From: an archaeon
Lineage (GTDB): Archaea; Asgardarchaeota; Thorarchaeia; Thorarchaeales; Thorarchaeaceae
Assembly: GCA_024276825.1 (NCBI GenBank)
Contig: JAJRWI010000040.1
Span: forward strand, 1 to 35,645
Length of the DNA: 35,645 nucleotides
Reading direction: 5' to 3'
The translations under genes and the position numbers were made by a program. Shown here in pieces: positions 6,967 to 32,607 of this stretch (positions are counted from its first letter, which is position 1; every line of letters starts with the position of its first letter). The notes below the pieces were generated by a model. The model ran no database searches. It was not told the origin of the DNA and saw only the letters and a program-made list of their open reading frames with translations.

Positions 6967-6976
6967 ATTGGACTGG

Positions 6977-6998
6977 TCCCCATATTCCAATATGGGGA
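6977..6998. terminator. Inverted repeat between convergent genes (putative bidirectional terminator)
   Basis: tccccatatt-cc-aatatgggga, a perfect 10-bp inverted repeat between the stops at 6966 (+) and 7010 (-). Confidence 0.6.
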
Positions 6999-7009
6999 TC
7001 TCTGCTCTC

Positions 7010-8680: not shown

Positions 8681-8693
8681 CACATATCCCTCC

Positions 8694-12275: not shown

Positions 12276-12791
12276 ATTACTAGTGAATATGCAAAAATAT
12301 CTTTGGTTGGTGCTGGCGGTGTTGGGAAGACCGCCATTGCAACAAGGATTCTAACGGGGAAATACCTTGAAACCAAAATGACAGTTGGACTAAACATTCA
12401 ATCATGGATAATGACCGATTCTGAAACCGGCCAAACCTATAAAACGGCCACATTTGATCTGGGGGGCCAGACTCGATTCAAGTTCCTGCATCGGTCAATG
12501 GTTTCAGGATCACATGTTATGCTATTGGTCTTTGATGTTTCTCGTTATGAGTCTCTTATAGAGCTAGAAGATTGGAGCGATATCATTTTTAATGATGATG
12601 GTCCGGCTTGTTTGCTTGTGGGTAACAAACTTGATTTGGGTCTCTCATTCGCTGAAGATGAAGTCAAAGCAAGGGCTGAAGAGCTCAATATACCCTACAT
12701 ATTGCTAAGCGCAAAGACTGGTGAGAACTTCGATCAATTTCAATCTATTCTTATTGAGAGAATTAGGAACGGTATGTCCAGAAAGAAATGA
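12276..12791 (+). CDS. Ras-superfamily small GTPase (Rab-like), probable ATT start
   Basis: G1 GAGGVGKT, G2 MTVG, G3 DLGGQ, G4 NKLD, G5 SAK; no C-terminal Cys. The beta-1 strand (AKISLVG) begins upstream of the track start at 12303. Confidence 0.92.
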   Translation: MTSEYAKISLVGAGGVGKTAIATRILTGKYLETKMTVGLNIQSWIMTDSETGQTYKTATFDLGGQTRFKFLHRSMVSGSHVMLLVFDVSRYESLIELEDWSDIIFNDDGPACLLVGNKLDLGLSFAEDEVKARAEELNIPYILLSAKTGENFDQFQSILIERIRNGMSRKK

Positions 12792-13255
12792 AGGAGAAAA
12801 CGAAAGTGGTGGAAGTATCCTTTGTATGTCCCGTATGTCAAGAAAGAAAGCAAGTAAACATTGACCAAGATCAGGTCCTTAATGCGCCGCGAAACCCTGT
12901 TCCTATCGTCATTACGCATGGTTCGCCTGAACATGCTGTTACAATCTTTATTGATATTGACTTCAATATTAGAGCAGTGAGCGCTTCTGATATTGTGCAG
13001 CGACTGGATGATACAGCCATTGTGTCTTTTCGGCTTCAAAAGAAAACAGTCCCTTTCCCCAAAAAGAAGCAAGTTTCACTGTCTGGTCTGTCTGGCATTC
13101 AGTGTGCACTCATTGCACTTATTGATGGCAAACGTAGTATTGATGAGTTGGCGGAAGCGCTCGATATTTCCACTATGAAGGTCAAAATATTATGTGAACA
13201 ACTAGTCAAAATGAGTAAAATAGAATCAGTAAAAGTGGTGATAGAAGAAAAATGA
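12788..13255 (+). CDS. Putative Zn-binding (CxxC...HxxxxH) domain plus winged-helix protein
   Basis: CPVC...HGSPEH...IFID, then LIALIDGKRSIDELAEALDISTMKVKILCEQLVKMSKI. ATGA overlap with the GTPase gene. Confidence 0.8.
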   Translation: MKEKTKVVEVSFVCPVCQERKQVNIDQDQVLNAPRNPVPIVITHGSPEHAVTIFIDIDFNIRAVSASDIVQRLDDTAIVSFRLQKKTVPFPKKKQVSLSGLSGIQCALIALIDGKRSIDELAEALDISTMKVKILCEQLVKMSKIESVKVVIEEK

Positions 13256-13863
13256 AGAATTGGTTGATAATACAGGCTTCAAAACTTAAAAAGATGGCTG
13301 GCGAAAAAGTACTTGTGCTCACTCTAACAAAACTTAATCAACTTCTCGTCGAGAGTTTGGTTGAGAGAGTCGGACCCAAAGAAGGCCTGAAGATTGCTTT
13401 TGAAGGTGGCCTTTCACTTGGACACGAGTTTATGTTAGAACTTGAATCCCACCTTGAAACAGATATTGCTCGCGTGCCTGCCTATGGTGAGGCAGCTTGG
13501 ATTCTGTTCTCGGGGCATTCTCCCACCAAACAGGAATTTCGAAAATTCGATGTTGATGGGATCGAAATTCATGAGTACAAATTCACTGACAAGGATTGTC
13601 CATGGTGCAGAAACATCAGTTTTCCCCATAAATTCTGCCAGTTCCCTGCAGGTGCATTTCAAGGAGCTGCTCAGACATGGTCAGCCCTTACAAGAAATGG
13701 TGAGTTCAATCTTGTTTGTCGTGAAACTAAATGCATAGCGGTGGGCGATGAATACTGCGAATGGACAATGATATTCATTCCCAAAGGAACTTCCCTATCA
13801 TTCATTCAGGAGCATTTCCCTGAGCTATTTGAGGATGTAGATTCAGGTTTTGTTGAATACTAA
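13252..13863 (+). CDS. V4R-domain protein (HNOX/Bet3-TRAPPC3 fold family)
   Basis: CPWC...FCQFPAGAFQG...CRETKCIAVGDEYCEW V4R signature. ATGA overlap with the upstream gene; GTGGTGA RBS. Confidence 0.88.
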   Translation: MKNWLIIQASKLKKMAGEKVLVLTLTKLNQLLVESLVERVGPKEGLKIAFEGGLSLGHEFMLELESHLETDIARVPAYGEAAWILFSGHSPTKQEFRKFDVDGIEIHEYKFTDKDCPWCRNISFPHKFCQFPAGAFQGAAQTWSALTRNGEFNLVCRETKCIAVGDEYCEWTMIFIPKGTSLSFIQEHFPELFEDVDSGFVEY

Positions 13864-16678: not shown

Positions 16679-17749
16679 TCAGTGAAAAGTCCATTTTCTC
16701 TGTGAAATCACAGGCAGTGTGATTCTGAATCTTGCCCCAGTTGTTGTAGGCAAAAGTTCTATTGTTCCTCCAAGGTATTCGATTACTCTTCTTGAAAGAT
16801 ATAGGCCCCTTCCTCCATCAGTTGTGGATGTGCCATATTCAAACAATTTGTCTTTTATATGTGATACAACTCCTGGACCATTATCTTGAATGTCTATTAG
16901 CACTCTATCTTTGCCCCTACTGATTATGATCTCCACCTCTGCCGCCTTACTTGCATGTTTGATAATATTGCTTAGCAAATTATTGAACACAAAAATCAGC
17001 ATCTTGGAACCAGAAGGTAGCTGGAAGTCCGCAGAGTTCTTGCAAATTATTTTGATTCTCATTTTTGGAAAAACGCTCATGTACGAGTCAGTAAGCTCCT
17101 TCACCAAATTCAAAAAGTTCATTGGCCTGTCTGGATCATGCTCTTTAAACAGATTCAAGAGTATTGCCATTCGTTTTGCAACTGCAAAACAGAGATCAAT
17201 TGAGTTCATGTTCAAATTCTGAGGATCTTGTGATATTAGATCCAGCCTTCCCAGTAAAAGTTGAAGATCATTTATTGCATCATGACTTATTGCAAGTGAG
17301 CTTATTTCCAGCTGCAATTTGAACTCATTAATCTGATTTTTTAAATCGCGGTTTTCTCGCAACAGTTTTCTCTTTGTTGCTGTTGTTTCCACAACCAGAA
17401 GGATCTCTTCCATCACTATTGGCTTTTTAATAACTCCCGATATGTCTTCTCGAATTACCAATTCAGTCCTATGTACAGAGCTCTCAGGCATTATCATGAA
17501 TACATCTGGATTTTCATCCTTCTTTTTTATCTCATCAATCAAAATGACTCCATCCATATCTGGCAAGTCGTGATCAACAAAGGCAATATCCAAGATATGA
17601 TTCTTTATTTGTTCAATCGCTGAATGTCCAGTAAGAGCTGAACAGGCCTTATGTCCGAGATTCTGTACTATCATCTCAAGACTTCTACATACACTCTCAT
17701 TATCATCAACTATCAAAACATTGCAACAATAATTGGAGTTGGGAGTCAT
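16679..17749 (-). CDS. Hybrid sensor kinase, REC-HisKA-HATPase
   Basis: VLIVDDN...FVDHDLPDMDG...KKP receiver; H-box SHDAIND; N box NLLSNIIKH; G boxes DNGPG and GGRGLY. Confidence 0.9.
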   Translation of the reverse strand: MTPNSNYCCNVLIVDDNESVCRSLEMIVQNLGHKACSALTGHSAIEQIKNHILDIAFVDHDLPDMDGVILIDEIKKKDENPDVFMIMPESSVHRTELVIREDISGVIKKPIVMEEILLVVETTATKRKLLRENRDLKNQINEFKLQLEISSLAISHDAINDLQLLLGRLDLISQDPQNLNMNSIDLCFAVAKRMAILLNLFKEHDPDRPMNFLNLVKELTDSYMSVFPKMRIKIICKNSADFQLPSGSKMLIFVFNNLLSNIIKHASKAAEVEIIISRGKDRVLIDIQDNGPGVVSHIKDKLFEYGTSTTDGGRGLYLSRRVIEYLGGTIELLPTTTGARFRITLPVISQRKWTFH

Positions 17750-17758
17750 AATTAGAAA

Positions 17759-19228
17759 TCACCACTCTCTTCCAGTTTCAATTTCGGGGAGCCATATCTT
17801 GAAACTCGTTCCTTGACTGGGATCACCTCTAACTCTGTCATCTACTTCAAGAGTTCCTCCATACTTTACGATTATACTCTTTGCCTGATGGATTCCTATT
17901 CCTCCATATCTTCTGGTCGGGTCAAGCAACGATGTCTTTCTGTCCTTTTTTAGGCCTGGTCCATTATCTTCAACAAATATAGAATATCCCCTACTTTCTC
18001 TTTTAAGAATTATCCAAACACGTTTGTTACTATTTGAGTTGTATGTGATGGCATTTTCAATTATGTTCTTGAAGATGATTGAAGCAAATCTGTCGCCATG
18101 TATTGGCGCCCTCTTTACTGCATAGGTTTCCGATATAATGACATCATTAAACGTCTGTTTGAACTCGCTTACTACATCTCTTATAACCTCAACACAGTCT
18201 ATCTCATCAAGCGGTTCTTCAAGAAAGCCCTTTGTTGCTTGTGACCTCTTGATAAGACTTTGTATTTTTTCAACGGCCTCAATTATTATTGAAAGAGTAT
18301 CACGACATTCATCGCCTTCAATTGACATGCTCAGAATCTCAATACCCGACATTATTGCCTGCATGTAATTACGAATGTCATGGCCCAAAATGTCAAGATA
18401 GAGGGTGGCAGTTTCAGCACTTAGCTTAAGGATTTTTTCATCTTGTTTTCTCTCACTTATGTCTCGGATCAAGAGCCAGATTATGTCTTCATGAAATATC
18501 TGTTCTGCAATCATATACCCTCTAATCTCAATAGGAATGTTCAATTTAGCAATCTGGATCTTGGTTTCCATGCTGAATGGTTCTCTGCTGTTCAACAAAT
18601 CCTTGACTTTTTCTAGAAAAGCATTTCGTGCTTCTTTGTCTATAAAATCTTGAAACCGTTTTCCTATCCCAATACACTCGCCATTCGTATCCCCCACTAG
18701 TTTGGAGAAACTCTCACTGACTTGGACTATTGATCCATCTTTATCAATTGCAACCAGAATGTCCGCAACTATATTGAACAGCAATTTTGAAAGCGTTTCG
18801 GTCAGCGCGATTTGAATGCGATCGCTTTCATGGCCCGTAAGTTCTTTGCATACGCAAACCACGAAATCAATGTTTCTTGGCTTGAATGTCCTGACCATGT
18901 GCCATTCAGTTTCTCCATTAATTGCGACCTCGAAATCAATAGACTGTGACTCACCAGTATTCTTTGTTATTCTAATCGCTTCACCTATGCGATTGGCTAT
19001 TTTGCTCGGAAAAAGATATGCCAATCTCTTTGTAAACAATTCATTCGGATTGTATAGATTTCCATCTGGCTTGTAAAGTCCCAATGCTTCGCTTATTTTG
19101 CCCCCTGCCCAAACTATAACATCATCACTTGTAATCAGCATTCCAACTCCTAGATGCTGAAGTATCTCCTTTATGAGATCCGAGTCTCCGAATAGGTCCT
19201 TGATTCGGTTATCGTACTCCCTATTCAC
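17759..19228 (-). CDS. PAS-domain sensor histidine kinase
   Basis: PAS/PAC (AIDKDGSIVQVS...RDISERK), H-box GHDIRN, NIIENAITY, DNGPG, GGIGI. Confidence 0.92.
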   Translation of the reverse strand: MNREYDNRIKDLFGDSDLIKEILQHLGVGMLITSDDVIVWAGGKISEALGLYKPDGNLYNPNELFTKRLAYLFPSKIANRIGEAIRITKNTGESQSIDFEVAINGETEWHMVRTFKPRNIDFVVCVCKELTGHESDRIQIALTETLSKLLFNIVADILVAIDKDGSIVQVSESFSKLVGDTNGECIGIGKRFQDFIDKEARNAFLEKVKDLLNSREPFSMETKIQIAKLNIPIEIRGYMIAEQIFHEDIIWLLIRDISERKQDEKILKLSAETATLYLDILGHDIRNYMQAIMSGIEILSMSIEGDECRDTLSIIIEAVEKIQSLIKRSQATKGFLEEPLDEIDCVEVIRDVVSEFKQTFNDVIISETYAVKRAPIHGDRFASIIFKNIIENAITYNSNSNKRVWIILKRESRGYSIFVEDNGPGLKKDRKTSLLDPTRRYGGIGIHQAKSIIVKYGGTLEVDDRVRGDPSQGTSFKIWLPEIETGREW

Positions 19229-19365
19229 AATTATGGGCCTCTTTTCTCTTTGTCTTGGTAATATCTGCTGCTAATATTGTTTCGAAATGGATTTAACCCT
19301 CATAAAGTAAATAATTCGTGGTTATTAATAAATTATCTTGATGAATCAATCTTGGGGCGGAAAAA

Positions 19366-20445
19366 ATGGCTGAAAGGCAACCTCATAGGTCTTTGGAAGA
19401 TTGTTCCTCAAAGGATGAAATCACGTACCTGGCTCATCAGATCATCTGTCTTCGAAATGTATCCCGCCTTCTTTCAAAGCTTGATAAGGATATTGAGTAT
19501 ATCTGTTATACATTGGTCCATCTAATCCCCGAAGGATTTCAGTTTCCTGATAAGGCATCTGTGAGACTGACCCTTAATGATCAATTATTCGAAACTACTG
19601 GGTTTGCAGATTCCAAGTGCATGATAAATGTGTCTCTTTATGTCAATGGAGAAGAGAGTGGGAAGATTGAAGTATTCTATCCCGACGAACTGTTTGAGGA
19701 TAGTAATGGGTCATTTAATCAGGATGAATATGAACTCTTGGAAACAGTTGCTTTAGAACTGGGTCTCTATATTGAGAGAAAACTTGCCGAGAAGGCAAGA
19801 ATTCAACATTTTCAAGAACTTGAGATATATTCATCATTAATTCGTCATGATCTCAGAAATGACCTTGGTGTAGTTCTTGCAAATATTGACCTACTGAGAA
19901 TGCAAACAGAAGATATGTCATCTGATGTTGATGATATTCTTCAATCCCTCGAAGCTCTATGCCAGAGAATGACAAATCTTCTTAATGTTTTTAGCAGGTC
20001 GGCTGGACTTGATGAGTCATCGATCATTGCTGTCATTGAGAAATCAATAGAATGGGCCAAGGAAGCAAATCCTAACCTAACTATAAACTTCACTTATTCT
20101 CCTAATGTGAAGAATGCAAGAATTCTTGCAAGCCGAATGTTGCCAATGGTGTTTGATAATCTCCTCCGAAATGCAGCAATCCATGCTGGCAAAAATCCCA
20201 CAGTTGATATTACTGCTTCAATCACTGATCGCACTATTGAAATCATTGTTGCAGACGACGGTCCAGGTGTATCCAAGGAGATTCGACCTAAGTTGTTCCA
20301 GAAGGGCGTGTCAACTCGTGGGGGTGGCCTAGGCCTCTATTTGAGCAAAGAAATCATCAATGTGATGAATGGCACAATTGAACTAGTGGAGAATGATCAA
20401 CAACATGGCGCAGTATTCAAGATAATTCTTCCACTTGCCTATTAA
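19366..20445 (+). CDS. GAF-like-domain sensor histidine kinase
   Basis: N-terminal LIPEGFQFP...GKIEVFY...F..DEYELLETVA GAF-like domain; RHDLRN, NLLRNA, DDGPG, GGGLGL. Confidence 0.92.
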   Translation: MAERQPHRSLEDCSSKDEITYLAHQIICLRNVSRLLSKLDKDIEYICYTLVHLIPEGFQFPDKASVRLTLNDQLFETTGFADSKCMINVSLYVNGEESGKIEVFYPDELFEDSNGSFNQDEYELLETVALELGLYIERKLAEKARIQHFQELEIYSSLIRHDLRNDLGVVLANIDLLRMQTEDMSSDVDDILQSLEALCQRMTNLLNVFSRSAGLDESSIIAVIEKSIEWAKEANPNLTINFTYSPNVKNARILASRMLPMVFDNLLRNAAIHAGKNPTVDITASITDRTIEIIVADDGPGVSKEIRPKLFQKGVSTRGGGLGLYLSKEIINVMNGTIELVENDQQHGAVFKIILPLAY

Positions 20446-20503
20446 TAAAGAAAAAACTATATCAGGTATACACGGATAATAATTGTCACTGTGAGCTGAT
20501 GTT

Positions 20504-22948
20504 ATGAGCGAGGTGTTAGATGAGTCTTTAATCAAGGCTCTAGAACGCCAACCCTGCCCAATTTATCTAATAGACATTAATGGCACAATTCTCTGGACCA
20601 ACATATCAGCTCAAGAAATTGCTGGACTTGATGCTGGCCGAATTATTGGTAAAAGAATTTCTAACTTGAGTTGGAACTCCCGCCCAGAAACGTTCTTGAA
20701 ACTATTGAAGAAAGCAAATCGCCAGAAAACAGTTGATTTTGAAACGGTCCTGAAGAAGGATGATCAATGTACACTTAATAAAATCCATATATTCCGATTA
20801 TCCGATAAAACCAAAAGGCACACATTTGGAGTCGCGGTTCTTCCGTCAGATCTATTGTCCTCCCTGTCTATTCTGGAAAAAGAAAATGGTATCATCTTGT
20901 TAGTAGATAGAAAAATCATCTTTCAAAACACCATTGCAAGGAAAATATTCAACATGGATATTAATGATGAATTTATCCTACCTACATATTGCTCACAATT
21001 CGAATCAGTCCATATTTCTAAATCGGCACAATCTAAATCAGCTAGTTACTTTCAAAAAAAGATAATGAGAAACACTCGATTCAGAGTGGACTGGTGCTTC
21101 AAAAATCAACACAATTCAATCCGATTTGTGGATGTTCAGCACATTCCGCTACAAAAAACTCCCCTCGCCATCTCATTAATCCTTGCGAATGATAAAACTG
21201 AATCAAAGCTAGATGAATTGAAGTTTCGTATCCTGTTTCAGGGGTCTCCTGCAGCAACCTGCATTATAGACAAGAACTGTAGAATTCTGGATGCCAACCC
21301 TGCTATGATCAACCTGTTCGGGTATTCTCGGAAAGAACTTGTCGGGAAAATTATGCCTGACTTTTGCTATGGTGTGGATCGGAATATAATCAAGCAAATG
21401 CTTTTGGATGAATCTAGTGTGCTGAATAATATTGAGATTGCATCGAGCAAGAAGGACGGTACGCCACTTATGTTGCTTGCAAACGCCAGTGTCCAAAAGA
21501 TTGGTACTGAACCGTTTATCATTATGTCATTCATCGATCAAACTACTGAGAAAGAGGCCCTAATTAGCGCCGAAACTGCAAGAAGACTGTATCAAGACTT
21601 GTTTGAGAACATCCCAATTTCCATATTATTTGTGGATTCCAATGGTCGGATTATGGACTGTAATAAGATGATAACAACTCTAAGCCAGTACAAGCCAGAT
21701 GAACTGGTTGGGCAAAATGTCCATAGGCTATTCATGCAAGACATTTCGGATCAAGAAGCACTTACTAATGCACTTAAAAATGGCAGGGCGGAGAATATCG
21801 AATTAAGATTTGTGCGGAAAGATGGTGACATTGTTTATGTTCTGCTGGACTCTCTCTCTATAGAAATTGGGACTCTATTGGCCCTTCGGGATATTACTGA
21901 TTTGCACCGTACACTGTCTGAGCTTGAAATGAGCACTAAAAAATATGACCAGCTTGTTTCGCAACTCCCAATAGGAGTAGCAGTCACAGATTTGAAAGAG
22001 AATATCCTCTTGGCAAATGATGCACTTGCTCGGATTTTCGGGGCAAGCAAGGAAGAACTTATCGGCAAAAGCTTTTTGGACTTTGTAAGCCCCTCGTCAA
22101 AGGCCATTATTCAGGAGCAGACAAATAGTCATAACGATAATGCGGTTGCGAAATACGAGGTCCAGATTATCAGATCTGATGGTTCTTTCCGTGATGTAGA
22201 GATTATGTCCTCCTGGCTCAAAGATGAATCTGGTAGTGTTATCGGTACTCTTGGGACCATTGAGGACATTACTCATCAAAAACAACTTGAACGAATGAAA
22301 CAGATTCAAGACCAAGAAATTACTCTCTATGGTCGCTTATTACGTCACGATTTGCGAAATGACCTCGGACTGTTGCAGTGTTATATAGAAGCCATTCAAA
22401 TGATTGAATCAGATTTAGATCCTGAAAGCATTCAGTTCATTGAATCCTCACTTAATGTTATTGAACGAATGAATAATCTCATACGTTATCTCGAACGACC
22501 ACAACCTCTTACTACTGTTGAACTTGGCAAGTACATTTCCGAACTTGCAGAAGAGGCCAACAAGTCAAGCACGGCTCTGATTGTGAAAGTCAATATTGAC
22601 CCGAAAGTTAAAAATGAAAAAATAATTGCTGGCACATTACTTAATTTGGTGTTTCACAACTTATTTAGAAATGCAGAACAACATGCAGGACCAAAGCCTG
22701 TTGTATCAATAGATGTGCGAAAGAGCGGAAGCTTTGCCGAGATGATTGTCAGCGATAATGGTCCTGGGGTGCCGGATGAATTGAGGGAAAAAATCTTTGA
22801 GAGAGGCACATCGACAAAAGAGGGTGGGGGTCTGGGACTTCATCTTTGTCATGAGATCTTGATTGAACGTGGAGGATCAATCGAATTACTGCCTAGTGAG
22901 AAAGGAATGGGTGCGACTTTTCGTATATTGATTCCACTGGTATCATAA
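20504..22948 (+). CDS. Multi-PAS sensor histidine kinase
   Basis: About 5 PAS units (e.g. DANPAMINLFGYSRKELVG; LANDALARIFGASKEELIG); RHDLRN, NLFRNA, DNGPG, GGGLGL; no TM helix. Confidence 0.93.
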   Translation: MSEVLDESLIKALERQPCPIYLIDINGTILWTNISAQEIAGLDAGRIIGKRISNLSWNSRPETFLKLLKKANRQKTVDFETVLKKDDQCTLNKIHIFRLSDKTKRHTFGVAVLPSDLLSSLSILEKENGIILLVDRKIIFQNTIARKIFNMDINDEFILPTYCSQFESVHISKSAQSKSASYFQKKIMRNTRFRVDWCFKNQHNSIRFVDVQHIPLQKTPLAISLILANDKTESKLDELKFRILFQGSPAATCIIDKNCRILDANPAMINLFGYSRKELVGKIMPDFCYGVDRNIIKQMLLDESSVLNNIEIASSKKDGTPLMLLANASVQKIGTEPFIIMSFIDQTTEKEALISAETARRLYQDLFENIPISILFVDSNGRIMDCNKMITTLSQYKPDELVGQNVHRLFMQDISDQEALTNALKNGRAENIELRFVRKDGDIVYVLLDSLSIEIGTLLALRDITDLHRTLSELEMSTKKYDQLVSQLPIGVAVTDLKENILLANDALARIFGASKEELIGKSFLDFVSPSSKAIIQEQTNSHNDNAVAKYEVQIIRSDGSFRDVEIMSSWLKDESGSVIGTLGTIEDITHQKQLERMKQIQDQEITLYGRLLRHDLRNDLGLLQCYIEAIQMIESDLDPESIQFIESSLNVIERMNNLIRYLERPQPLTTVELGKYISELAEEANKSSTALIVKVNIDPKVKNEKIIAGTLLNLVFHNLFRNAEQHAGPKPVVSIDVRKSGSFAEMIVSDNGPGVPDELREKIFERGTSTKEGGGLGLHLCHEILIERGGSIELLPSEKGMGATFRILIPLVS

Positions 22949-22979: not shown

Positions 22980-24230
22980 TTATAGTGATGAGTCAATAAT
23001 ATATGGTTTCCATTTTTCATTGCAGGTGTTCTTGACTCTGGTTAGCATGGCCTGCATTGATTTCTTCCCAATCACTTCACCAATCATCACACTTACATTA
23101 TCAATCAAATGATCAATTGAATCGCCAATTTGACTCATCTCTCTGGGCGTTATAAGAACATCAAGTGCCACATATGCTGATAAGTCGCGTTTCAAAAACA
23201 CTCTGGATAGCCACGGGTGTCTATCGATATTCTCTATTATAGCTCTTTGTAAAATCCTCATGGTCTGCTCTTGTCCGATTTTACTGGCACTTGATTGAAT
23301 GACTCCAGTGAGAATACACTCACTTGCAAGTAAGAGCCGCTTTTCAATTGATACTTTTTGGATATATCCCCTAGAAAGTAGACTGCCAAGCTCATAAATG
23401 ATGAATTCAGGGTAGTCAAGCTTTAGGGTTTCAAAGATCTTGTAGAGTGGAGCTCTTCCATCTAACCTTGATATTGTACGAATTGTTTCTATGCTTAGAG
23501 ACTCTGGATTCTCAATTGAAAGCAAGAATCCTAAAGATCCAGGTGAGAGTGATAGAATATCATTTTCATCCGGAACAAATACGACGTTTATGAGATTATT
23601 CCAAATTGCGATAGAAACTATGTTGACTAGGTCATCAAAGTTTACATTTAACTCATTAGCCAGTTCGAAGAGAGTCTGACCTTCCCGAGCGCTTTTGATG
23701 ATTCTTGCAATCTCAAACTTCATTTTTACTGATTTGAACATATCATGTAAACTTATGTTCCTTTTAACATCTACAATCATTGTTCGCTTTGTCAATCTAT
23801 CAACGAGGAATGTCCTTCGTACAAAATTATCGAAATCATCGAACAAGCTCCCATCTATAGTGTCTTCATCTCTTAGAAACTGAAATGTGTCCTCAAATTC
23901 CAGTACGATCGATCTTAGCTTGCTCCTTGCCTCATTCGTTTCACGAGTTACAGCTAAAACTCCAATTGCCCAATTTGCAGGTTCAACTAGCAGAGTTGTG
24001 TCCTGACCATAGATTATTTTCCACCCCCTCTGCTTAATGCCTGCGACTTCAGCGACGAAGCTCTGCATGGCAGATAGAAAGCCTGAGAGCATTTGTGGGT
24101 CTTGCATCCCCTCGATGAACTCATGGGAATATGGGGCCATTCCTGAATACTTGTTGAATATGAACATTATCTGTTCGTTAAATCCACTAGTCCTTCTCGC
24201 AACAAGTTCTTGGGCTTTCACATAGACCAC
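22980..24230 (-). CDS. Longin-like domain protein with tandem winged helices
   Basis: IMFIFNKYSGMAPYSHEF...DPQMLSGFLSAMQSFVAEV...KLRSIVLEFEDTF...FDDFDNFVRRTF fits the archaeal longin pattern. Two wH-like units follow (GQTLFELANEL...; LDGRAPLYKI...LLSRGYI). Start is GTG 24230 or 24221. Confidence 0.75.
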   Translation of the reverse strand: MVYVKAQELVARRTSGFNEQIMFIFNKYSGMAPYSHEFIEGMQDPQMLSGFLSAMQSFVAEVAGIKQRGWKIIYGQDTTLLVEPANWAIGVLAVTRETNEARSKLRSIVLEFEDTFQFLRDEDTIDGSLFDDFDNFVRRTFLVDRLTKRTMIVDVKRNISLHDMFKSVKMKFEIARIIKSAREGQTLFELANELNVNFDDLVNIVSIAIWNNLINVVFVPDENDILSLSPGSLGFLLSIENPESLSIETIRTISRLDGRAPLYKIFETLKLDYPEFIIYELGSLLSRGYIQKVSIEKRLLLASECILTGVIQSSASKIGQEQTMRILQRAIIENIDRHPWLSRVFLKRDLSAYVALDVLITPREMSQIGDSIDHLIDNVSVMIGEVIGKKSMQAMLTRVKNTCNEKWKPYIIDSSL

Positions 24231-24256
24231 ATCATTGATTTGAAGGGTGTCAAAGA

Positions 24257-24619
24257 TTATTTGCCAATGTACTTGTCAATTGCTGCAAACAGGTCTTTGC
24301 TTCGAATTGGCTTTGTTAGAAAGCCTACAGCACCAGTCTTTAATGCATCCTCTCTTATGCTCTCATCAGCACTAATAAAGAGGATTCTAGCAGATGGGTA
24401 ATTAGCAAGTATTTCATTGGTAGCTGTAATCCCGTTCATGACTGGCATTCGATGGTCCATCAATACAAGGTCTGGCTTAGGATTGGATTGAATGTACTTT
24501 TCAACGGCCTCTGCGCCATTGAAAGCATGTGCCACAACGTCATGGCCCCCAAGAGATAGGATCCTATCCAGGACTTTATGCAGTAGTTGGTCGTCATCCA
24601 CAATCATTACTCTAACCAT
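24257..24619 (-). CDS. Single-domain response regulator (CheY-like receiver)
   Basis: VMIVDDD, LVLMDHRMPVMNG, FISA, LTKP; all key receiver residues intact; no output domain. Confidence 0.95.
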   Translation of the reverse strand: MVRVMIVDDDQLLHKVLDRILSLGGHDVVAHAFNGAEAVEKYIQSNPKPDLVLMDHRMPVMNGITATNEILANYPSARILFISADESIREDALKTGAVGFLTKPIRSKDLFAAIDKYIGK

Positions 24620-24631
24620 GTTCAGTCCCCC

Positions 24632-25723
24632 TTAGTTATTCTCATCCTCCGTCTTTTGATTTTCAGCTTTGCGTATTAGTAGAACAAAGTTTGCCCCCTT
24701 GGAATAGTCGCCTTCAACTCTGTCTTCGATGTAAATCTGACCCCCATAATTCTCAATGATTTTCTTGACCAAGGTCAATCCAAGACCTAGTCCAAGAATG
24801 GTTTCTCTTCGTTCAATGATCTTATCGAAAATCTCCTCCTTCTGTTCGTCTCTAATTCCTGGCCCATGATCCTTTACCTGTATCTTTACAAAAGGAGTAT
24901 ATCTTATTTCTTCAGCTTCTACCTCAACTATTACCTCATTCTTTGGGTCGAATTTCATGGCATTGTGGATTAATGCATAAAAGACATCAACCAAAAAGTC
25001 ATCTGCCATTACTTTAAACTGACCTGGTTCAAAATTAGATCTCAAGACTAGCTTTTTATCCGGAAACGCCTTAGCAACCTCTTCAGCAGCCCGTTTCAAT
25101 GAGGCCCCTAGATCTCTTACTCCAACAACAGGCTTTTCTGTTTCAATAAGATGAAGTTTCTTTACATTAGCAATTAATTGGGAGCTACGATCAAGTTCTC
25201 TTATTCCTTCATCAAGGAGTTTTTTCATCTCTTCGGAAATATCTGGTGAATGATAGATTAGTTCAAAGATGGATAGGATTTCTTGATTGATGTTTGTAAG
25301 GTCATGAGTGATCAAGTCAATGAAAAACTCTACTTTCCGCTGTGTTTCAATAAGCTGCTTTTCGGCATTTTTCTTCTCAGTTATATTCCTATAAAAGCCG
25401 TAAGCACCAACTATCTTTTCATCCTCAATAAACGGAAATACTATCCCTTCAACATAAACCGTTTCTCCATTTTTTGTGACAAACATGGCTTCTATACTCT
25501 CTTGCCGCTCTCCCTTCATTGCAATTGAGAGTAAATCTTGATAATGCTTTATTGAGCTGGGATGAATTATGTCATCCAATTTCAAATTCGGAACTTCTTC
25601 TCTGGTATATCCCAAAGTGTTCAACCAAGCCTGATTAACAAACTCAAAAGAGCCATCAGGTCTAACAATATGCACTAAGTCGCTAATTTCATCTATCAGT
25701 TTCGCGATACGGTCCCCATACAC
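24632..25723 (-). CDS. PAS-domain sensor histidine kinase
   Basis: FVNQAWLNTLGYTREE PAS, THDLTN, ALIHNAMKF, DHGPG, GLGLGL; AAGGAGG before the GTG start. Confidence 0.93.
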   Translation of the reverse strand: MYGDRIAKLIDEISDLVHIVRPDGSFEFVNQAWLNTLGYTREEVPNLKLDDIIHPSSIKHYQDLLSIAMKGERQESIEAMFVTKNGETVYVEGIVFPFIEDEKIVGAYGFYRNITEKKNAEKQLIETQRKVEFFIDLITHDLTNINQEILSIFELIYHSPDISEEMKKLLDEGIRELDRSSQLIANVKKLHLIETEKPVVGVRDLGASLKRAAEEVAKAFPDKKLVLRSNFEPGQFKVMADDFLVDVFYALIHNAMKFDPKNEVIVEVEAEEIRYTPFVKIQVKDHGPGIRDEQKEEIFDKIIERRETILGLGLGLTLVKKIIENYGGQIYIEDRVEGDYSKGANFVLLIRKAENQKTEDENN

Positions 25724-26079: not shown

Positions 26080-29000
26080 TTGAGTAGCAGATTTAATAAG
26101 GTTCGTTTTTTGTCGCTTGTTTTTATTGCAATCTACATGCTTGGATTCATCCCACAAGCTGTCTGGGCTGGGCAAGCATTACCGAAAGATGATAACACCG
26201 TGCTACCCGCACCCTTTGAGGGATATGATCTAGACTACATTTATCTCTTCTATGATCCTGAAGATGAAGTCCTATCTGCTGTTGCAAATGCAGTGCATGA
26301 AATTCTGACATATCGTGTTAATAGCGTTAGAATGATTCCAGTTTCATCATACCTTGATTTGGAATATTACTTGCTCGATGAACCATGGATAGCAGTCTAT
26401 GCATTGCACTCAGGACTAAACGGGGTTACATTTCCTGATCGCAATATGTCCTGGCATCAGTTCTATCAGACGCTTAATAATCACAGGAGCACACGACATA
26501 TTGTAGGCATGGGCAATACGCTTGGTCTGATGAAAGATCTTCCAACGCGCAGCTCTTCAATTTACCACTGTGAGTCAGAACAGATTGACGGAATGCTCCT
26601 CATTATCTATGATCTCTGGACTATCTCCGAGATCATGGAGGACCGTGCCCAAGTCGATTCGAAATATGATCGTCCGAGTAAAGATGTCAAAGCCATGACC
26701 ATCAAGATTTATGGGGATAATCTGAATCAGGTGTTCAAACGTACGCTTGAGCCCATCAATCCAGTTGGTGAGGTCGACCCCCTTGCTCTGGAGAAAAGAA
26801 CAGAAGAGATGTGGGCAAGGCATAAGCCTGAAATTCGACCAGCAGCCTATAAAATGCAGGAAGATGGGTCTCTCAAAGAAATACCTCTAGATGAACTTCC
26901 TGAAGACTTCTCACCAGTGATCAAGCTCTCTTCGCCAGCAGAACTTTCGGAGAATGATTACGCACTTGGTGAAATTCCTCTGTTCTCTGCTCTGCGCGGT
27001 CCCATTGGTGAGATTATCGATGTCTTACTTAATGTTCTCGTAGGGGAGGGCCAGACGACAATCTCCATTCCCAGTGAAGTTGTTGATGGCTTGATGACTG
27101 CCCTTAAAGTAATAGAGCCACTAATTGGACTTGTAAACAACTCAGACAAGGACTCCGCAATTAAAGAGGTTATAGATGCCATAGCTTCAGAATTTCCGTT
27201 TATTGATGAATACAAGGGCTATCTCAACATATTAATGAAAGCACTGTTCAATATGCGTGGCGATTTCTCAAGCCTCCTAGAGATCGTCACCGAGTTGATC
27301 GTCTCTCTTCTGCCAGATTCAATCCCCAGTGAACTTACTGATTTTATTATGCAAATTCTTGGAGTGAATGATGGACTATGGGACCTAATCACTGAGACCA
27401 TAAACTCTGGCAAGGGCGTGTTCGACACCATTTTCAGTTTCTTTACAAAGAACAGCTTGAGTGCCATTCTCAATAAAACATTGGTCGCTGTTCTTGAGCT
27501 TGCACCCTCAGAAGTATCCACACTTCTTCCACGTATGACTGGCTTCATTAGTGCCGCAATTGATTTTCTTGCAACTCGTGATTATATGAAGTTTCTAACT
27601 GATGTGGCTGATGATCTTCTAGATACTCTTGTTCCAATGACTGGGCTTGAGGATGTAGTGGGCAAAATCATGAAAGTTGTAGAGCTAGCAATGACTGTTG
27701 TTGATCTCGTTGATAATTTTGATGCTGAATCAATTATGGATCTTGTCATTGAGATACTCCAAGAGTTCGTTCCTTCTGGACTTGTGCAAGATGCGGAAAC
27801 CCTTGCACGCAACTTGATGGATGTAGTGAAGAGATATAAAGAGGGTGGAATGCCTGATGTTAATGCTTTCAAGAGCGAGCTGGAATCTGCAATTTCACAG
27901 GCCGTGGCTGAAACAGTTCCTGAATCAACTCGCAATGTAATTCGTGACACTATCTCTCTTCTCGGTGCATATTTCAATGACGCCTTCGATAAGACCCAAC
28001 TTCCATCTCTATTTGATGTGGCCGTTGCGCTCGTAAACGAGTTTGCCGAATCAGCCACAGAGAATGGGGTCACACTTTCTCAGACTGAGGAATTGGTCGA
28101 TGCACTGAATAATGTGGTCAAACCGATTCTTGCAGTGATTGCTCAGGTTGCAGATTCTGACTCTCTGAAAGAGATAATCAGCCAGACAGTTTCTAATTTC
28201 AACAGCGAATTCAGTTCTATAGCAGATACTATTCTAGATGCAATTCAAGCCATGGACCTTGAAAATGTATTTAGTGGGATATCAGGTGTTATGGACACAC
28301 TTAATGACCTTGCTGAAATCGCTGGCGGTATCATTAATGTAATTAAGCTTGCCAAGGGCCAATCATTTCAAGGGATTATGCAGTCTCTTCTAATGACTGC
28401 AGGTTCAATCCTTGGTTCATTCCCTGCATTTGACGATGTTCCTCTTGATGCAGTCTTTGACCTGCTAAAGTCCTTCTTCCCTGATGCTTTTGGAATTGAT
28501 CCCCAAGACCTGCCAAGCAAGACTGAGATCATCAATACAATTCTTGATTATGCTTCTGGTCTGTTGAGTGGGATAATTGATCCCTCAACACTCCAGACAC
28601 TCCTTGAGTTCTTTATGGATGTCAAAGACATTTTCACTAACGGTGTACAATGGCTACTTGGCAAGATATTTGATTGGCTCAGCGGAATGCTGAATCCGCT
28701 CTTTGATGAGCTTGAACAGACAATAATGGGGCTCTTCGAAGGTGTGGGTGATCTACTCGGATACTCCACTAAGATTCCAATTGGCTTGGGCGACTGGTCA
28801 CTGTTTGACTTGACTGTTTCGCTGGGCATCCGTGCCAATTTCAATATTGATATTTCGCCATTGTTCGATATGATCTCGAGCATGATATTTGATGCTCGTA
28901 GCACATTCTCATTGACCAGCGTCGGAGACTTCATGAAAACAATATTTTCATTCTTTGAGATATCTCCACAATTCTACGCAGAGCTTGGCGTTGCTGGCTT

Positions 29001-32000
29001 TGATTCCTCCAAGAATGCAATCATGGGTACGTTGCTGAAGTCTTTAGGTCTAGAAATGACATTCGAGGGCAGTGCTCACTTTGTCATGACCCTCTTCACA
29101 TTCCGTGAAGGAATGTTTGAGTGGGAAGACTTCTTCAAGATTGTGGAATGGGGTCTGCATATCAAGATAACACTTGGGAAAGTCTTCACTCTTGCTGATC
29201 TATTCACTGCTGGACTTGGCGGCGGTGCCCTTGGTGCAGTGATGGAATTCTTAGGTCTTGACACGATTAAAATCACAATCTACTTTGGAGTTGAATTGGA
29301 CATTGTGAAGAAGGCGGCAACAGCGATTGCAGCAGAGGTGTCATCATTAACGCTGGCGATAACCTTTGGAATCTCCATCCATATTCCGATTGATATTGTA
29401 ATAGTTGCAATTATCATAGATGGTTCGATGGAGATAATCCTGACGTTCTTCCAAGACTTTGCATCCGGAGACCCAATGAAGATAATTCTGCGGCTGATCT
29501 TTACTGTCAAGATCAAATTCAAATTCCTGTTCTTTGAGGACTCGGCTGAGTGGACCTGGGAGCCGGGTGGACCTTGGGACCTAAGCCCCAAGAAGGGCGA
29601 GGAAGAGTATGAGAAATCTGGTGTTGGCTTCGATACTGATGAAGATGGTCTTAGCGATGAATATGAAGCCACCATTCCAGGCCTTGACCCCAATAAGCCT
29701 GACACTGATGATGATGGTGCCAGTGACAAACTGGAAGTCCAGACCATTGGAACTGACCCAGTGAATCCAGATAGTGATAATGATGGACTCCTAGATGGTG
29801 AGGAATGGGAGCTAGGCACTAATCCAATGCAACCAGACACGGATTGGGATGATATTAGTGACTATGATGAAGTCAAGGTCTATGGAACCGATCCTCTGTC
29901 GCAGGACACCGATGGGGACATGCTGAGCGACTCTTATGAAATATACACTCGATGGGACATGACTCAAATCACTCCTACAGTTGAGTATGTCACAATAGGT
30001 GGTGTGAAGTATGATGATCATACTGACCCATTGAACCCAGATACTGATGGCGATGGTGTTCTGGACGGACAGGAAGGGCCTATGGGGGCCTACTATGGCC
30101 TTGACTCGCTTTACAACGATACTGAAGGATCTGGCATGGACCCCTCACCATTAATCTTCAACTATGGCTATACTCATCCTCTAGATGCTGATACTGATGA
30201 TGACTCGTATCTGCAGTTATACAATGGCGACATTGATATGATGTTGGAGATGAAACTCTATCCTGCAGGAACCGAGGGTCAAGAATACCCGATGAGTGAT
30301 GGCAATGAGATTGCAGGTTTTGACATTATCTTGTACGATGATGATGGTGAGCCATATCAGAAGCATGTCTATACAAACCCCTGCAATCCAGACACAGATG
30401 GAGACACTGGCGTTTCTGAGAACGAACGAATTAACCCTCCAGCTGGTGCTTGGCTGAACTCGGATGGCTATGAGCTTGCTCAAGATCCGCCAAGTGATCC
30501 AACAGATGGCGATTCAGACGATGATGGTCTATTAGATGGTCTTGAGGGGGTTTTGCGTCAAGATAGTAATCACACCTTCTATTTGGACCCAGATACGGAT
30601 GATGATGGCCTTCCAGACATGCTGGACTTGCTTCTTGGAACAGATCCTCTCTCACCAGACACTGATCTTGATATGGTGTCTGATGGTGATGAGTTCTACA
30701 TATACGGCACTTCACCTGTCAACCCCGACACGGACTTTGATGGACTAACTGATGGTGAGGAGTTGTTCTTCTGGCACACTAATCCATTCTCAGACGATTC
30801 AGATGGTGATGGTCTCAAAGACGGCTACGAGGTATTGGTGACCGGAAGTGATCCCATGGATGAGGACAGTGATAATGACGGTCTCAATGATTTTGAGGAG
30901 TTCTTTATCTATTATACCCTGCCATTTGTTTACGACTCTGATGGCGATGGCCTGAGTGATGGCGAGGAGATAAAGATCTACTCAACTGACCCATTGGTCT
31001 GGGACACTGACCATGACTCTATTACTGAGCCCAATGAGTTTGGTGAGTTCACATGGCCAATGAGTGACTATCAAGAAATAATGATTCATGGAACAAACGC
31101 CACTGAGCCTGATAGCGATATGGATGGACTTGATGATGCCATTGAACTTTACCTTGGTTCAGGCGAGATTCCTTGGATGGACCCAATTCCTCTCAATGCT
31201 ACTAATCCAGACACAGACGGTGACCTTCTCTTAGATGGCTCAGAATTGATGCTTAAGAATGTCAGTGATATTGTCTATCCATATCGTGGAATCACAATAA
31301 TTCTACGGTTTAACTCATCGCCTGTGATGGCAGACACCGATAACGACAATCTCACCGACTATCAGGAGATTGTTGTATTCAATACGAATCCAGCGAACAA
31401 TGATACCGACAACGACACTATCACGGACTGGTGGGAGGTCTGGGTCTATAACACATCTGCCATATATGATGATACGGATGGCGATGGACTGTTTGATTAT
31501 GAGGAAACACTTACTGAAGTCTGGCCTTATGGGCCATGGCCCCCCGATAACTGGTCCATAGGAATGGGCTCTGGTGACAATGGTACGCCGGGTGGATGGA
31601 CACCCCCAGCTATGAACTCTATCAATGGGTTTGCCTTATCGCAAGAGCCAATCTATCCAACAAGTGCGACTGATCCTGATTCCGATAATGATTGGTTACC
31701 TGATGGTGCAGAAGTCTATCTCTATGGCAGTAATCCTATGAATAGCGACTCAGATGGAGATGGGGTGGATGACACCTATGAGTTTGATACTGATTATGAT
31801 GGTATGCCTGATGGTGTTGAGTTTCAACAGGGTCTCCAGGGTGTTGCTGGCGGAGGAATCATGAATCCCGATAGTGATTATGATGGCCTCCTTGATGGTG
31901 ATGAGTTCTATATCTACGGCACCGACCCCTCGAAGCTAGACACTGATGGAGATGGATATTCTGATGGCCTTGAGATTGCCTTGGGACTGGATCCATTGAC

Positions 32001-32607
32001 GCCAACATCGCCGGATGAGTTCAATTTGGCCTTGGCCACTGAACGTGGTAAGAATACTATGACAATTTTGCTTCCGAAGACTGGGGAAGTCACATACCAA
32101 GATGCACAACTTAGTGTTGTAAACTTCACTAATTTTCAAGACATGTGGTATCGCTACAATAACGGAACTGGTTGGAGCGACAACTACACACTGATTTACA
32201 ATCCAAGCGCTCAAATGTGGCAGAGCACCAATCAGACCTGGCCAACAGGCAACATAACAGTGCAGGTCTTTGGAAGAAACATGACTGGTGTGATTCATGC
32301 CGCAACTACCTACTTTGTTGTACTTCCGGGAACAACCCCCTTCCCATGGCTTCTTATAGGAGCAATAGCTGCAGCGGCTGTGGCCTCTGTAATAATCCTT
32401 TATGGCGGATATCGGAAGGGCCTTTGGAGTAAGTTGGGCGGGAAGGTCAAGAAGAAAGTTGGGAGAGGGAAATCTGACAAGTCCGAAAAGAGCGAAAAAG
32501 ATGGGTCTCCAGACAAGTCTGATTCTAAATCCAAACCCAAGAAATCTACGACTTCTAAGAAGAGCACGAAGACTAGCCCCAAGAAGGGGAAGAAAGGAGG
32601 CGATTAA
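26080..32607 (+). CDS. Giant (2175 aa) membrane-anchored surface protein with long helical region, beta-rich region and about 26 TSP3-like Ca-binding repeats
   Basis: Signal-peptide-like N-terminus, DxDxDGxxDxxE repeats, an N-glycosylation-sequon-rich beta domain near the C-terminus, TM helix at 32341-32412 and a basic tail. TTG start 9 nt after AAGGAGG. Confidence 0.92.
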   Translation: MSSRFNKVRFLSLVFIAIYMLGFIPQAVWAGQALPKDDNTVLPAPFEGYDLDYIYLFYDPEDEVLSAVANAVHEILTYRVNSVRMIPVSSYLDLEYYLLDEPWIAVYALHSGLNGVTFPDRNMSWHQFYQTLNNHRSTRHIVGMGNTLGLMKDLPTRSSSIYHCESEQIDGMLLIIYDLWTISEIMEDRAQVDSKYDRPSKDVKAMTIKIYGDNLNQVFKRTLEPINPVGEVDPLALEKRTEEMWARHKPEIRPAAYKMQEDGSLKEIPLDELPEDFSPVIKLSSPAELSENDYALGEIPLFSALRGPIGEIIDVLLNVLVGEGQTTISIPSEVVDGLMTALKVIEPLIGLVNNSDKDSAIKEVIDAIASEFPFIDEYKGYLNILMKALFNMRGDFSSLLEIVTELIVSLLPDSIPSELTDFIMQILGVNDGLWDLITETINSGKGVFDTIFSFFTKNSLSAILNKTLVAVLELAPSEVSTLLPRMTGFISAAIDFLATRDYMKFLTDVADDLLDTLVPMTGLEDVVGKIMKVVELAMTVVDLVDNFDAESIMDLVIEILQEFVPSGLVQDAETLARNLMDVVKRYKEGGMPDVNAFKSELESAISQAVAETVPESTRNVIRDTISLLGAYFNDAFDKTQLPSLFDVAVALVNEFAESATENGVTLSQTEELVDALNNVVKPILAVIAQVADSDSLKEIISQTVSNFNSEFSSIADTILDAIQAMDLENVFSGISGVMDTLNDLAEIAGGIINVIKLAKGQSFQGIMQSLLMTAGSILGSFPAFDDVPLDAVFDLLKSFFPDAFGIDPQDLPSKTEIINTILDYASGLLSGIIDPSTLQTLLEFFMDVKDIFTNGVQWLLGKIFDWLSGMLNPLFDELEQTIMGLFEGVGDLLGYSTKIPIGLGDWSLFDLTVSLGIRANFNIDISPLFDMISSMIFDARSTFSLTSVGDFMKTIFSFFEISPQFYAELGVAGFDSSKNAIMGTLLKSLGLEMTFEGSAHFVMTLFTFREGMFEWEDFFKIVEWGLHIKITLGKVFTLADLFTAGLGGGALGAVMEFLGLDTIKITIYFGVELDIVKKAATAIAAEVSSLTLAITFGISIHIPIDIVIVAIIIDGSMEIILTFFQDFASGDPMKIILRLIFTVKIKFKFLFFEDSAEWTWEPGGPWDLSPKKGEEEYEKSGVGFDTDEDGLSDEYEATIPGLDPNKPDTDDDGASDKLEVQTIGTDPVNPDSDNDGLLDGEEWELGTNPMQPDTDWDDISDYDEVKVYGTDPLSQDTDGDMLSDSYEIYTRWDMTQITPTVEYVTIGGVKYDDHTDPLNPDTDGDGVLDGQEGPMGAYYGLDSLYNDTEGSGMDPSPLIFNYGYTHPLDADTDDDSYLQLYNGDIDMMLEMKLYPAGTEGQEYPMSDGNEIAGFDIILYDDDGEPYQKHVYTNPCNPDTDGDTGVSENERINPPAGAWLNSDGYELAQDPPSDPTDGDSDDDGLLDGLEGVLRQDSNHTFYLDPDTDDDGLPDMLDLLLGTDPLSPDTDLDMVSDGDEFYIYGTSPVNPDTDFDGLTDGEELFFWHTNPFSDDSDGDGLKDGYEVLVTGSDPMDEDSDNDGLNDFEEFFIYYTLPFVYDSDGDGLSDGEEIKIYSTDPLVWDTDHDSITEPNEFGEFTWPMSDYQEIMIHGTNATEPDSDMDGLDDAIELYLGSGEIPWMDPIPLNATNPDTDGDLLLDGSELMLKNVSDIVYPYRGITIILRFNSSPVMADTDNDNLTDYQEIVVFNTNPANNDTDNDTITDWWEVWVYNTSAIYDDTDGDGLFDYEETLTEVWPYGPWPPDNWSIGMGSGDNGTPGGWTPPAMNSINGFALSQEPIYPTSATDPDSDNDWLPDGAEVYLYGSNPMNSDSDGDGVDDTYEFDTDYDGMPDGVEFQQGLQGVAGGGIMNPDSDYDGLLDGDEFYIYGTDPSKLDTDGDGYSDGLEIALGLDPLTPTSPDEFNLALATERGKNTMTILLPKTGEVTYQDAQLSVVNFTNFQDMWYRYNNGTGWSDNYTLIYNPSAQMWQSTNQTWPTGNITVQVFGRNMTGVIHAATTYFVVLPGTTPFPWLLIGAIAAAAVASVIILYGGYRKGLWSKLGGKVKKKVGRGKSDKSEKSEKDGSPDKSDSKSKPKKSTTSKKSTKTSPKKGKKGGD
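29632..31980 (+). repeat. Protein-level tandem array of about 26 thrombospondin-type-3-like DxDxDGxxDxxE repeats
   Basis: Hand count from DTDEDGLSDEYE to DTDGDGYSDGLE; the copies are degenerate at DNA level. Confidence 0.85.

Follow-up and report, generated by a model that had tools for sequence, protein, structure and literature searches.

An NPRL2/3-like longin protein encoded beside a PAS histidine kinase and a stand-alone receiver in Thorarchaeaceae

Kinase, receiver and longin genes at the locus

The window analysed here is a 35,645-nt stretch of DNA (contig JAJRWI010000040.1, positions 1 to 35,645 of the forward strand, assembly GCA_024276825.1) from a Thorarchaeaceae archaeon of the order Thorarchaeales (Asgardarchaeota), whose genome is 2.94 Mb long and 98% complete. 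Genes for a PAS histidine kinase (24632-25723), a receiver (24257-24619) and a 416-aa longin protein (22980-24230) are intact open reading frames (ORFs) on its minus strand, separated by 12 and 26 nt. An earlier note made from the sequence had read these genes as a one-strand set with such gaps; the ORF coordinates agree, and the set is a real, correctly described operon-like unit. A scan of the locus for sigma-70 promoters and terminators, with a model that does not cover archaeal promoters, gave chance-level results. The main genes are as follows.

24632..25723, minus strand: soluble PAS histidine kinase, 363 aa (Pfam PAS_9, E 3e-15; HATPase_c, E 5e-16)
24257..24619, minus strand: stand-alone receiver, 120 aa (Pfam Response_reg, E 1e-24, as its sole domain)
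22980..24230, minus strand: soluble NPRL2/NPRL3-like protein of subfamily A, 416 aa, with a longin domain, two winged helices and a helical C-terminal domain (AlphaFold2, Foldseek, full-length Thorarchaeota homologues)
19366..20445, plus strand: second conserved histidine kinase, 359 aa (HisKA and HATPase_c), with an N-terminal domain without assignment

All catalytic motifs are present in kinase 24632, namely the H box with His140 (THDL), the N box with Asn254, G1 (DHGPG, 285) and G2 (GLGLGL, 311). The receiver has, in alignment, the full phospho-acceptor set of Asp9/Asp10, Asp55, Ser83 and Lys103. Four further kinases are coded at 16679-22948, and the one at 16679-17749 is a REC-HisKA-HATPase hybrid. 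The kinase cluster holds two receivers, the stand-alone one and the REC part of this hybrid. About 17 histidine kinases, 7 receiver proteins and about 30 small GTPases were found in the source genome.

Both cluster receivers lack an output domain according to Pfam, as the earlier note had said, one of the two being the hybrid kinase. A DNA-binding or enzymatic output domain is likewise absent from all 7 REC proteins found in the source genome, and receiver-only proteins make up about 40% of archaeal response regulators, with protein contact as their expected mode of action (PMC5847659). Output-less receivers were therefore rejected as a special clue to the function of this locus.

Conservation of the neighbourhood

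Matches to the 416-aa protein were found in 73 of the 87 genomes of the order and were split into orthologues (subfamily A) and a paralogue (subfamily B). The family is present in 55 of the 57 genomes of the window's family that are at least 85% complete, and weaker homologues are scattered in other Asgard families. Named homologues are full-length and come mostly from Candidatus Thorarchaeota records. The source genome has three full-length paralogues, B on contig C77 and more distant ones on contigs C35 (C35:47545) and C50 (C50:7623).

Neighbourhoods of up to 20 kb were compared around 72 further copies of A, 20 of B and, in the same genomes, 40 arbitrary regions. They were annotated with profiles seeded from the window, and orthologues were assigned by best match to source-genome proteins. 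The counts are descriptive and carry no test statistic, as the genomes are related and many contigs are short; the 73 A copies include the window's own.

Of the 73 subfamily A copies, 40 (55%) have a two-component gene no more than 2 kb away, corresponding to 35 of 57 other genomes and 12 of 15 other genera. The control values were 2 of 287 genes in the arbitrary regions, 65 of 2478 genes in the source genome and none of 20 paralogue B loci. The genes found nearby are for the most part orthologues of kinase 24632 and receiver 24257, and not just any of the kinases and receivers of the genome. Of the 57 other genomes, 15 (9 genera) have a receiver orthologue (56-68% identity) at most 5 kb from the longin gene, and 15 have an orthologue of kinase 24632 there; one or the other was found there in 19 genomes (9 other genera), and both in 11. 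Kinase 19366 has orthologues at this distance in 11 of the 57 genomes (7 genera). In the converse search, genomes with a close match to the receiver or the kinase had it next to subfamily A in about half of the cases. What is new here is that subfamily A travels with one specific kinase-receiver pair across ten genera.

The arrangement of these genes is variable. The exact kinase-receiver-longin order, whose conservation the earlier note had looked to, is kept in only 4 of 57 other genomes (G057, G054, G023 and G014, with the kinase interrupted in the last two), while proximity is kept in several other orders. Receiver and longin genes are adjacent without a kinase in front in G055, G008 and the closest relative (locus L001), where the gap is 33 nt and the longin protein is 51% identical. 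The order longin-kinase-receiver is present in G039, G007 and G074, and convergent arrangements in G055 and G013. In four genomes of genus g11, the longin gene is followed directly by the PAS kinase orthologue, and the receiver was not found nearby. The linked A copies are on branches spread over a quick tree (backbone unresolved), and their two-component neighbours occur upstream, downstream and convergently. Since the neighbours vary in position and orientation and the branches are spread, the link has outlived rearrangement. The longin protein very probably belongs functionally to the two-component module in some way.

That the gene merely stood beside the kinase-receiver pair in a Thorarchaeota ancestor, and has been drifting away from it with no functional link, is very improbable. 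In its favour, roughly half of the genomes lack the linkage, and more distant homologues in other Asgard families mostly do not show it; there, a kinase is nearby in only 1 of 10 genomes checked by coordinates (G140). However, proximity has lasted through inversions and changes of gene order in ten genera, copies no longer at the pair are often beside other kinases, and non-signalling neighbours are not shared beyond one or two genera, except for the helix-turn-helix (HTH) gene of the kinase operons.

Paralogue B (G000:C77:55767-56963 = L126:9468-10664; L127-L145) is nearly universal in Thorarchaeota and stands in a constant context without signalling genes: it diverges from a ZPR1-like zinc-finger gene and lies ahead of genes for a membrane protein and an ABC transporter. 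It is a candidate constitutive dimer partner of subfamily A. Genus g16 has a second subfamily A copy (L082, L083, L107, L108) that converges on a PAS kinase; next come an acetyltransferase-like gene, a MinD/ParA-like ATPase gene and a further two longin genes. In the proteins P0079, P0082, P0083 and P0103, longin domains related to this one occur in fusion with KaiC/DUF835-type ATPase domains and Ig-like repeats, a further tie of the same longin type to prokaryotic signalling.

Fold of the longin protein and its proposed relation to small GTPases

The AlphaFold2 model of the 416-aa protein, computed from a 61-sequence alignment, has a mean predicted local distance difference test (pLDDT) score of 93.2 and a predicted template-modelling (pTM) score of 0.90. 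The following parts were delimited on it.

23796..24182, minus strand: longin domain, residues 17-145 (VIA-align Z 12-13 to Sec22b, VAMP7, Fuzzy and synbindin)
23571..23738, minus strand: first winged-helix repeat, about residues 165-220 (model secondary structure; weak profile matches)
23346..23504, minus strand: second winged-helix repeat, about residues 243-295 (model; conserved LDGR and ELGxLxxxG motifs)
22983..23345, minus strand: helical C-terminal domain, residues 296-416, with a conserved PW and a short hairpin (AlphaFold2 model)

Residues 17-145 of the model have the beta-beta-alpha-beta-beta-beta-alpha-alpha order and the length of about 120-130 residues that define a longin, with strands at 19-26 and 34-37, a helix at 45-63, strands at 70-74, 78-84 and 88-94, and helices at 99-115 and 127-141. 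The domain aligns with the Sec22b longin over 120 residues at Z 13.2 and a root-mean-square deviation of 2.7, and the N-terminal longin fold proposed by the earlier note is borne out by the model. It is the most conserved part of the protein and an acidic one, with a mean orthologue identity of 53% and a mean net charge of -6.4. Longins fill the best 50 VIA-align rows, and NPRL2 chains are not among these 50. In the Foldseek search with the whole chain, the top ten matches are chains of the GATOR1/SEA complexes (E 2e-5 to 6e-4, about 340-490 columns), with a template-modelling (TM) score of only 0.21 and about 10% identity. The architecture as modelled is NPRL2/3-like, as the earlier note had suspected from the combination of longin and winged helices.

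Sequence profiles give weaker signals. No significant Pfam match was obtained for the 416-aa protein, and M3K_C and UTP20 hits below the cut-off were disregarded; Pfam NPR2 (PF06218) had no match in the source genome at E 1 and none in 61 family members. The first winged helix has weak matches to MarR (E 0.03) and to residues 186-257 of human NPRL2 (E 0.82), and family members have weak matches to HTH and winged-HTH, Sybindin and Fuz_longin_1 profiles. Profile searches against sequences in PDB returned only chance helical matches and very weak NPRL2/3 matches, and an ESM Atlas search with the C-terminal domain 296-416 gave no usable match. The hydropathy peak over 19 residues is 1.87 and falls within the first winged helix.

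A DNA-binding function of the winged helices, by which the longin protein would be the trans-encoded transcriptional output of the receiver, is very doubtful. The weak MarR, TrmB and HTH profile matches in family members agree with it, as does the frequent neighbourhood of response-regulator and HTH genes in archaea (PMC5847659). On the other hand, the helix-turn-helix parts carry a neutral to negative charge (family means of -1.8 and -1.1), including helices 2-3 of the second winged helix throughout the family, and the whole protein averages -12. With identities of 25% and 36%, against 53% for the longin, the winged helices are also much less conserved, and the matching C-terminal domains of NPRL2/3 are protein-contact surfaces (PMC8534245).

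Longins that act as GTPase-activating proteins (GAPs), such as NPRL2, FLCN and SMCR8, have a GP motif that precedes strand 2 or lies at its start (PMC12290439) and carry an arginine finger (PMC8213707); the finger arginine of NPRL2 was placed in a 'loop of the longin domain' (PMC8534245). An adjacent GP was found in none of 63 subfamily A sequences covering the site, where the family reads G-x-[AS]-[PL]-Y-S-H. The finger residue of NPRL2 is Arg78, which we take to sit in the beta4-beta5 connection of its longin. In subfamily A this connection is a fixed-length tight turn, E-x-G-x-W, with an arginine in only 2 of 68 sequences, and the focal longin has no arginine at the finger position as set from this assumed placement. 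Arg96, Arg102 and Arg106 are kept in more than 90% of subfamily A and are located after beta5 and on the next helix, off the finger position. Because the GP motif and the finger arginine are missing from these sequences, a finger-arginine GAP role of the NPRL2 kind is unlikely.

The earlier note had further suggested that the receiver may act through the longin protein on a GTPase, perhaps one coded in the same window:

12276..12791, plus strand (opposite to the longin gene): Rab-like GTPase of the Ras family (E 3e-24) with a probable ATT start and with G1, G3, G4 and G5 intact

This gene is 10.2 kb and eight genes away from the longin gene, in a three-gene unit of its own, and 17.9% of all source-genome genes have a GTPase gene within 10.2 kb, which is the background rate. 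Of its 36 best matches, which come from 25 other genomes (36-48% identical, and maybe not all orthologues), none lies within 20 kb of a subfamily A gene, and the single one that shares a contig with it is 151 kb off. No enrichment of small GTPases was seen near subfamily A: of the 73 copies, none has one within 2 kb and 5 have one within 5 kb, the background being 3.5-5.6% and 7-10%, respectively. On distance, background rate and absent conserved linkage, GTPase 12276 was rejected as the partner of the longin protein, and this part of the earlier proposal fell. Of the three overlapping genes at 12276-13863, one codes for the Rab-like GTPase, one for 155 aa that include a CxxC motif and an HTH-like part at the C-terminal end, and one for a protein with a V4R domain. 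The latter two have syntenic counterparts (61-65%) in the closest relative, L001, where the DNA examined ends before the GTPase position; they were not found in the other loci examined.

A wider proposal is that the phosphorylated receiver controls the longin protein, which would be a guanine-nucleotide exchange factor (GEF) or GAP for some small GTPase. It is quite unlikely, and it is weakest with GTPase 12276 and stronger with an unlinked one among the GTPases of the genome; that the phosphorylated receiver would bind the NPRL2/3-like protein, which, dimerised with a paralogue, would regulate a small GTPase encoded elsewhere, is likewise improbable. The longin fold with a GATOR1-like layout and the three well-conserved arginines speak for a GEF or GAP role, as do three sets of relatives. 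In an A subclade (L110-L113, four genomes of two genera; e.g., L113:8266-15712), a one-strand unit codes for a roadblock protein, an Arf/MglA-like GTPase, two roadblock-like proteins, a histidine kinase, a MarR-like HTH protein and the longin protein. In the metagenomic locus L003:274-11242, the orthologue ends a cluster of receivers, kinases and a DEAD/ResIII helicase, and a Ras-family GTPase gene lies 1.8 kb upstream. On C50 of the source genome (G000:C50:2836-12653), a 427-aa distant paralogue (C50:7623-8906) is coded two genes ahead of a Rab-like GTPase (6731-7252) on the same strand. Against a GEF or GAP role are the lack of GTPase enrichment near subfamily A, the absence of GTPase 12276 homologues beside orthologues of the longin gene, and the missing GP and finger arginine, with the conserved arginines placed elsewhere.

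The paralogue-GTPase set on C50 is flanked by a receiver pair and a large PAS kinase. Both the paralogue (49-52%) and the GTPase (62-63%) recur together in genus g16 (L196:2-2024, L067:537-1061, L043, L044), about 8 kb from subfamily A. The C50 locus is a better candidate for longin-GTPase coupling than the 22980 locus. In L113, a 203-aa protein without a Pfam match is coded directly 3' of the orthologue (8647-9258), followed by a roadblock gene; it has a cysteine-rich motif in two repeats, NCWE...C...GRICW..AGTLCGG...C..C.FY.

A putative receiver-longin relay and related systems

The complex of longin protein and receiver was predicted with a score of 0.56 (runs of 0.56, 0.50 and 0.62), while the best of three controls scored 0.00. 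The runs agreed in at least 92% of contacts, with a partner pLDDT of at least 86. Among 80 solved complexes, 58 reached the mark for such scores, as did 2 of 110 mismatched pairs; those that reached it at scores of up to 0.60 were only seven solved complexes and both mismatches. Because the conserved neighbourhood had made the guess fairly likely beforehand, the score was taken as a modest gain, and the model lends weak support to a contact of receiver and longin. The earlier idea that the receiver targets the longin protein is supported as far as the tie to the kinase-receiver pair is concerned, by a neighbourhood far above background and this weak prediction, and not for the wiring to GTPase 12276.

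The best explanation, to which we give about an even chance, is a relay in which the PAS kinase phosphorylates the receiver and the receiver binds the longin protein as a non-catalytic relay scaffold. The module would have three to four parts, the cytoplasmic PAS kinase 24632, the receiver 24257, the longin protein 22980 and often kinase 19366. An internal cue would lead to autophosphorylation of the PAS kinase at His140 and to transfer of the phosphate to Asp55 of the receiver. Cognate phosphotransfer is presumed because the orthologous kinase and receiver genes are adjacent in most genomes holding both. The output-less receiver would then bind the longin protein in a phosphorylation-dependent way, a direct binding that we propose tentatively, at slightly below an even chance. 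By analogy with eukaryotic longins, the longin protein may act as a dimer, perhaps with one of the three full-length paralogues, and would pass the signal on by protein contact. The protein contact expected of archaeal receiver-only regulators (PMC5847659) and the Asgard fusions of NPRL2-like longins with two-component domains (bioRxiv 10.1101/2020.10.19.343400) speak for such a relay.

Several points weigh against this relay. Two-component genes are missing within 2 kb of about 45% of the subfamily A copies. A receiver gene stands immediately upstream, in the same direction, at only 8 of 73 copies, and roughly half of the genomes that have a receiver orthologue keep it away from the longin gene. 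Many subfamily A genomes have no close receiver match at E 1e-38. In several lineages a kinase is the only two-component neighbour, so a kinase could be the true partner. Related genomes are not independent samples, and the complex score of 0.56 falls in a range more often wrong than right unless the guess is likely beforehand, with no interface given.

It is rather unlikely that the longin protein acts on the kinases instead, binding the PAS kinase or the 359-aa kinase as an input or scaffold and tuning its kinase or phosphatase activity. Such a role is played by roadblock proteins next to kinases in the conservons of actinobacteria. Around subfamily A, kinases are found more often than receivers, with an adjacent two-component gene at 33 of 73 copies and a receiver within 2 kb of only 18, and the four g11 genomes have the PAS kinase orthologue beside the longin gene and no receiver found nearby. 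The title of a review cited in PMC8534245 likens longins to GAF/PAS sensor folds. However, the closest relative and two other genomes keep receiver and longin adjacent without a kinase, and the receiver-longin prediction passed its controls.

The family and its tie to two-component signalling are already in print, and the addition made here is a specific candidate partner for the longin protein. Liu et al. (2020, bioRxiv 10.1101/2020.10.19.343400, Fig. 5c) reported an NPRL2-like family in most Thorarchaeota metagenome-assembled genomes and many fusions of NPRL2-like longins to two-component domains in Asgard archaea, and they proposed that eukaryote-like regulators work inside two-component pathways. 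The focal family matches theirs in layout and distribution (most Thorarchaeota, few other Asgard archaea). The preprint reports domain fusions, but no partner and no conserved neighbourhood for the stand-alone protein, whereas a neighbourhood and three paralogous groups are described here; within the family, subfamily A travels with one kinase-receiver pair and paralogue B never does. A literature search for a conserved kinase-receiver-longin neighbourhood, largely outside subscription papers, found no paper.

Like the focal protein, NPRL2 and NPRL3 of GATOR1/SEACIT have an N-terminal longin followed by winged-helix-like repeats and a similar length. The low identity and TM score set the focal protein apart, as its domains are arranged differently, and so do the absent Pfam NPR2 match, the missing GP motif and finger arginine, and an extra helical tail. 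Without GP motif and finger arginine, it is closer to the non-catalytic NPRL3, and unlike for eukaryotic GATOR1, no DEPDC5 or Rag partner was identified for it. The non-GAP longins (Sec22b/VAMP7/Ykt6, Fuzzy, Mon1-Ccz1, the TRAPP subunits synbindin and sedlin, and adaptin sigma/mu) are the best single-domain structural matches (Z 11-13), but they differ in their C-terminal domains, and the focal locus has no linked GTPase or partner longin. Archaeal CheY-like receiver-only regulators are mostly without a conserved neighbourhood or known partner (PMC5847659), whereas receiver 24257 has a candidate.

MglB structures are among the Foldseek matches of the focal protein. In kinase-roadblock-GTPase conservons and MglAB systems, a histidine kinase gene stands beside a gene of the roadblock/longin superfamily. 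The focal locus shares this feature, but it has a true receiver, and a longin instead of a roadblock. No roadblock gene was found in the window and no GTPase gene in the operon-like unit; a conservon-like arrangement is present only in the L110-L113 subclade.

A small soluble kinase-receiver-longin set kept over ten genera bears on the targets of archaeal receiver-only regulators and on the role of GATOR1-like proteins before TOR, and it makes the published surmise testable with three proteins. If the full chain to a GTPase were true, His-Asp signalling would feed in trans into a switch of the proto-GATOR1 kind, and an Asgard receiver-only regulator would have its first identified target; this GTPase step, which would make the finding striking, is without support at the focal locus.

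Elsewhere in the window, a protein of 2175 aa coded at 26080-32607 is predicted to be secreted; it has a long helical region of amphipathic character, many repeats of the DxDGDG type and, at the C terminus, a membrane anchor. A syntenic counterpart of 2177 aa is present in L001.

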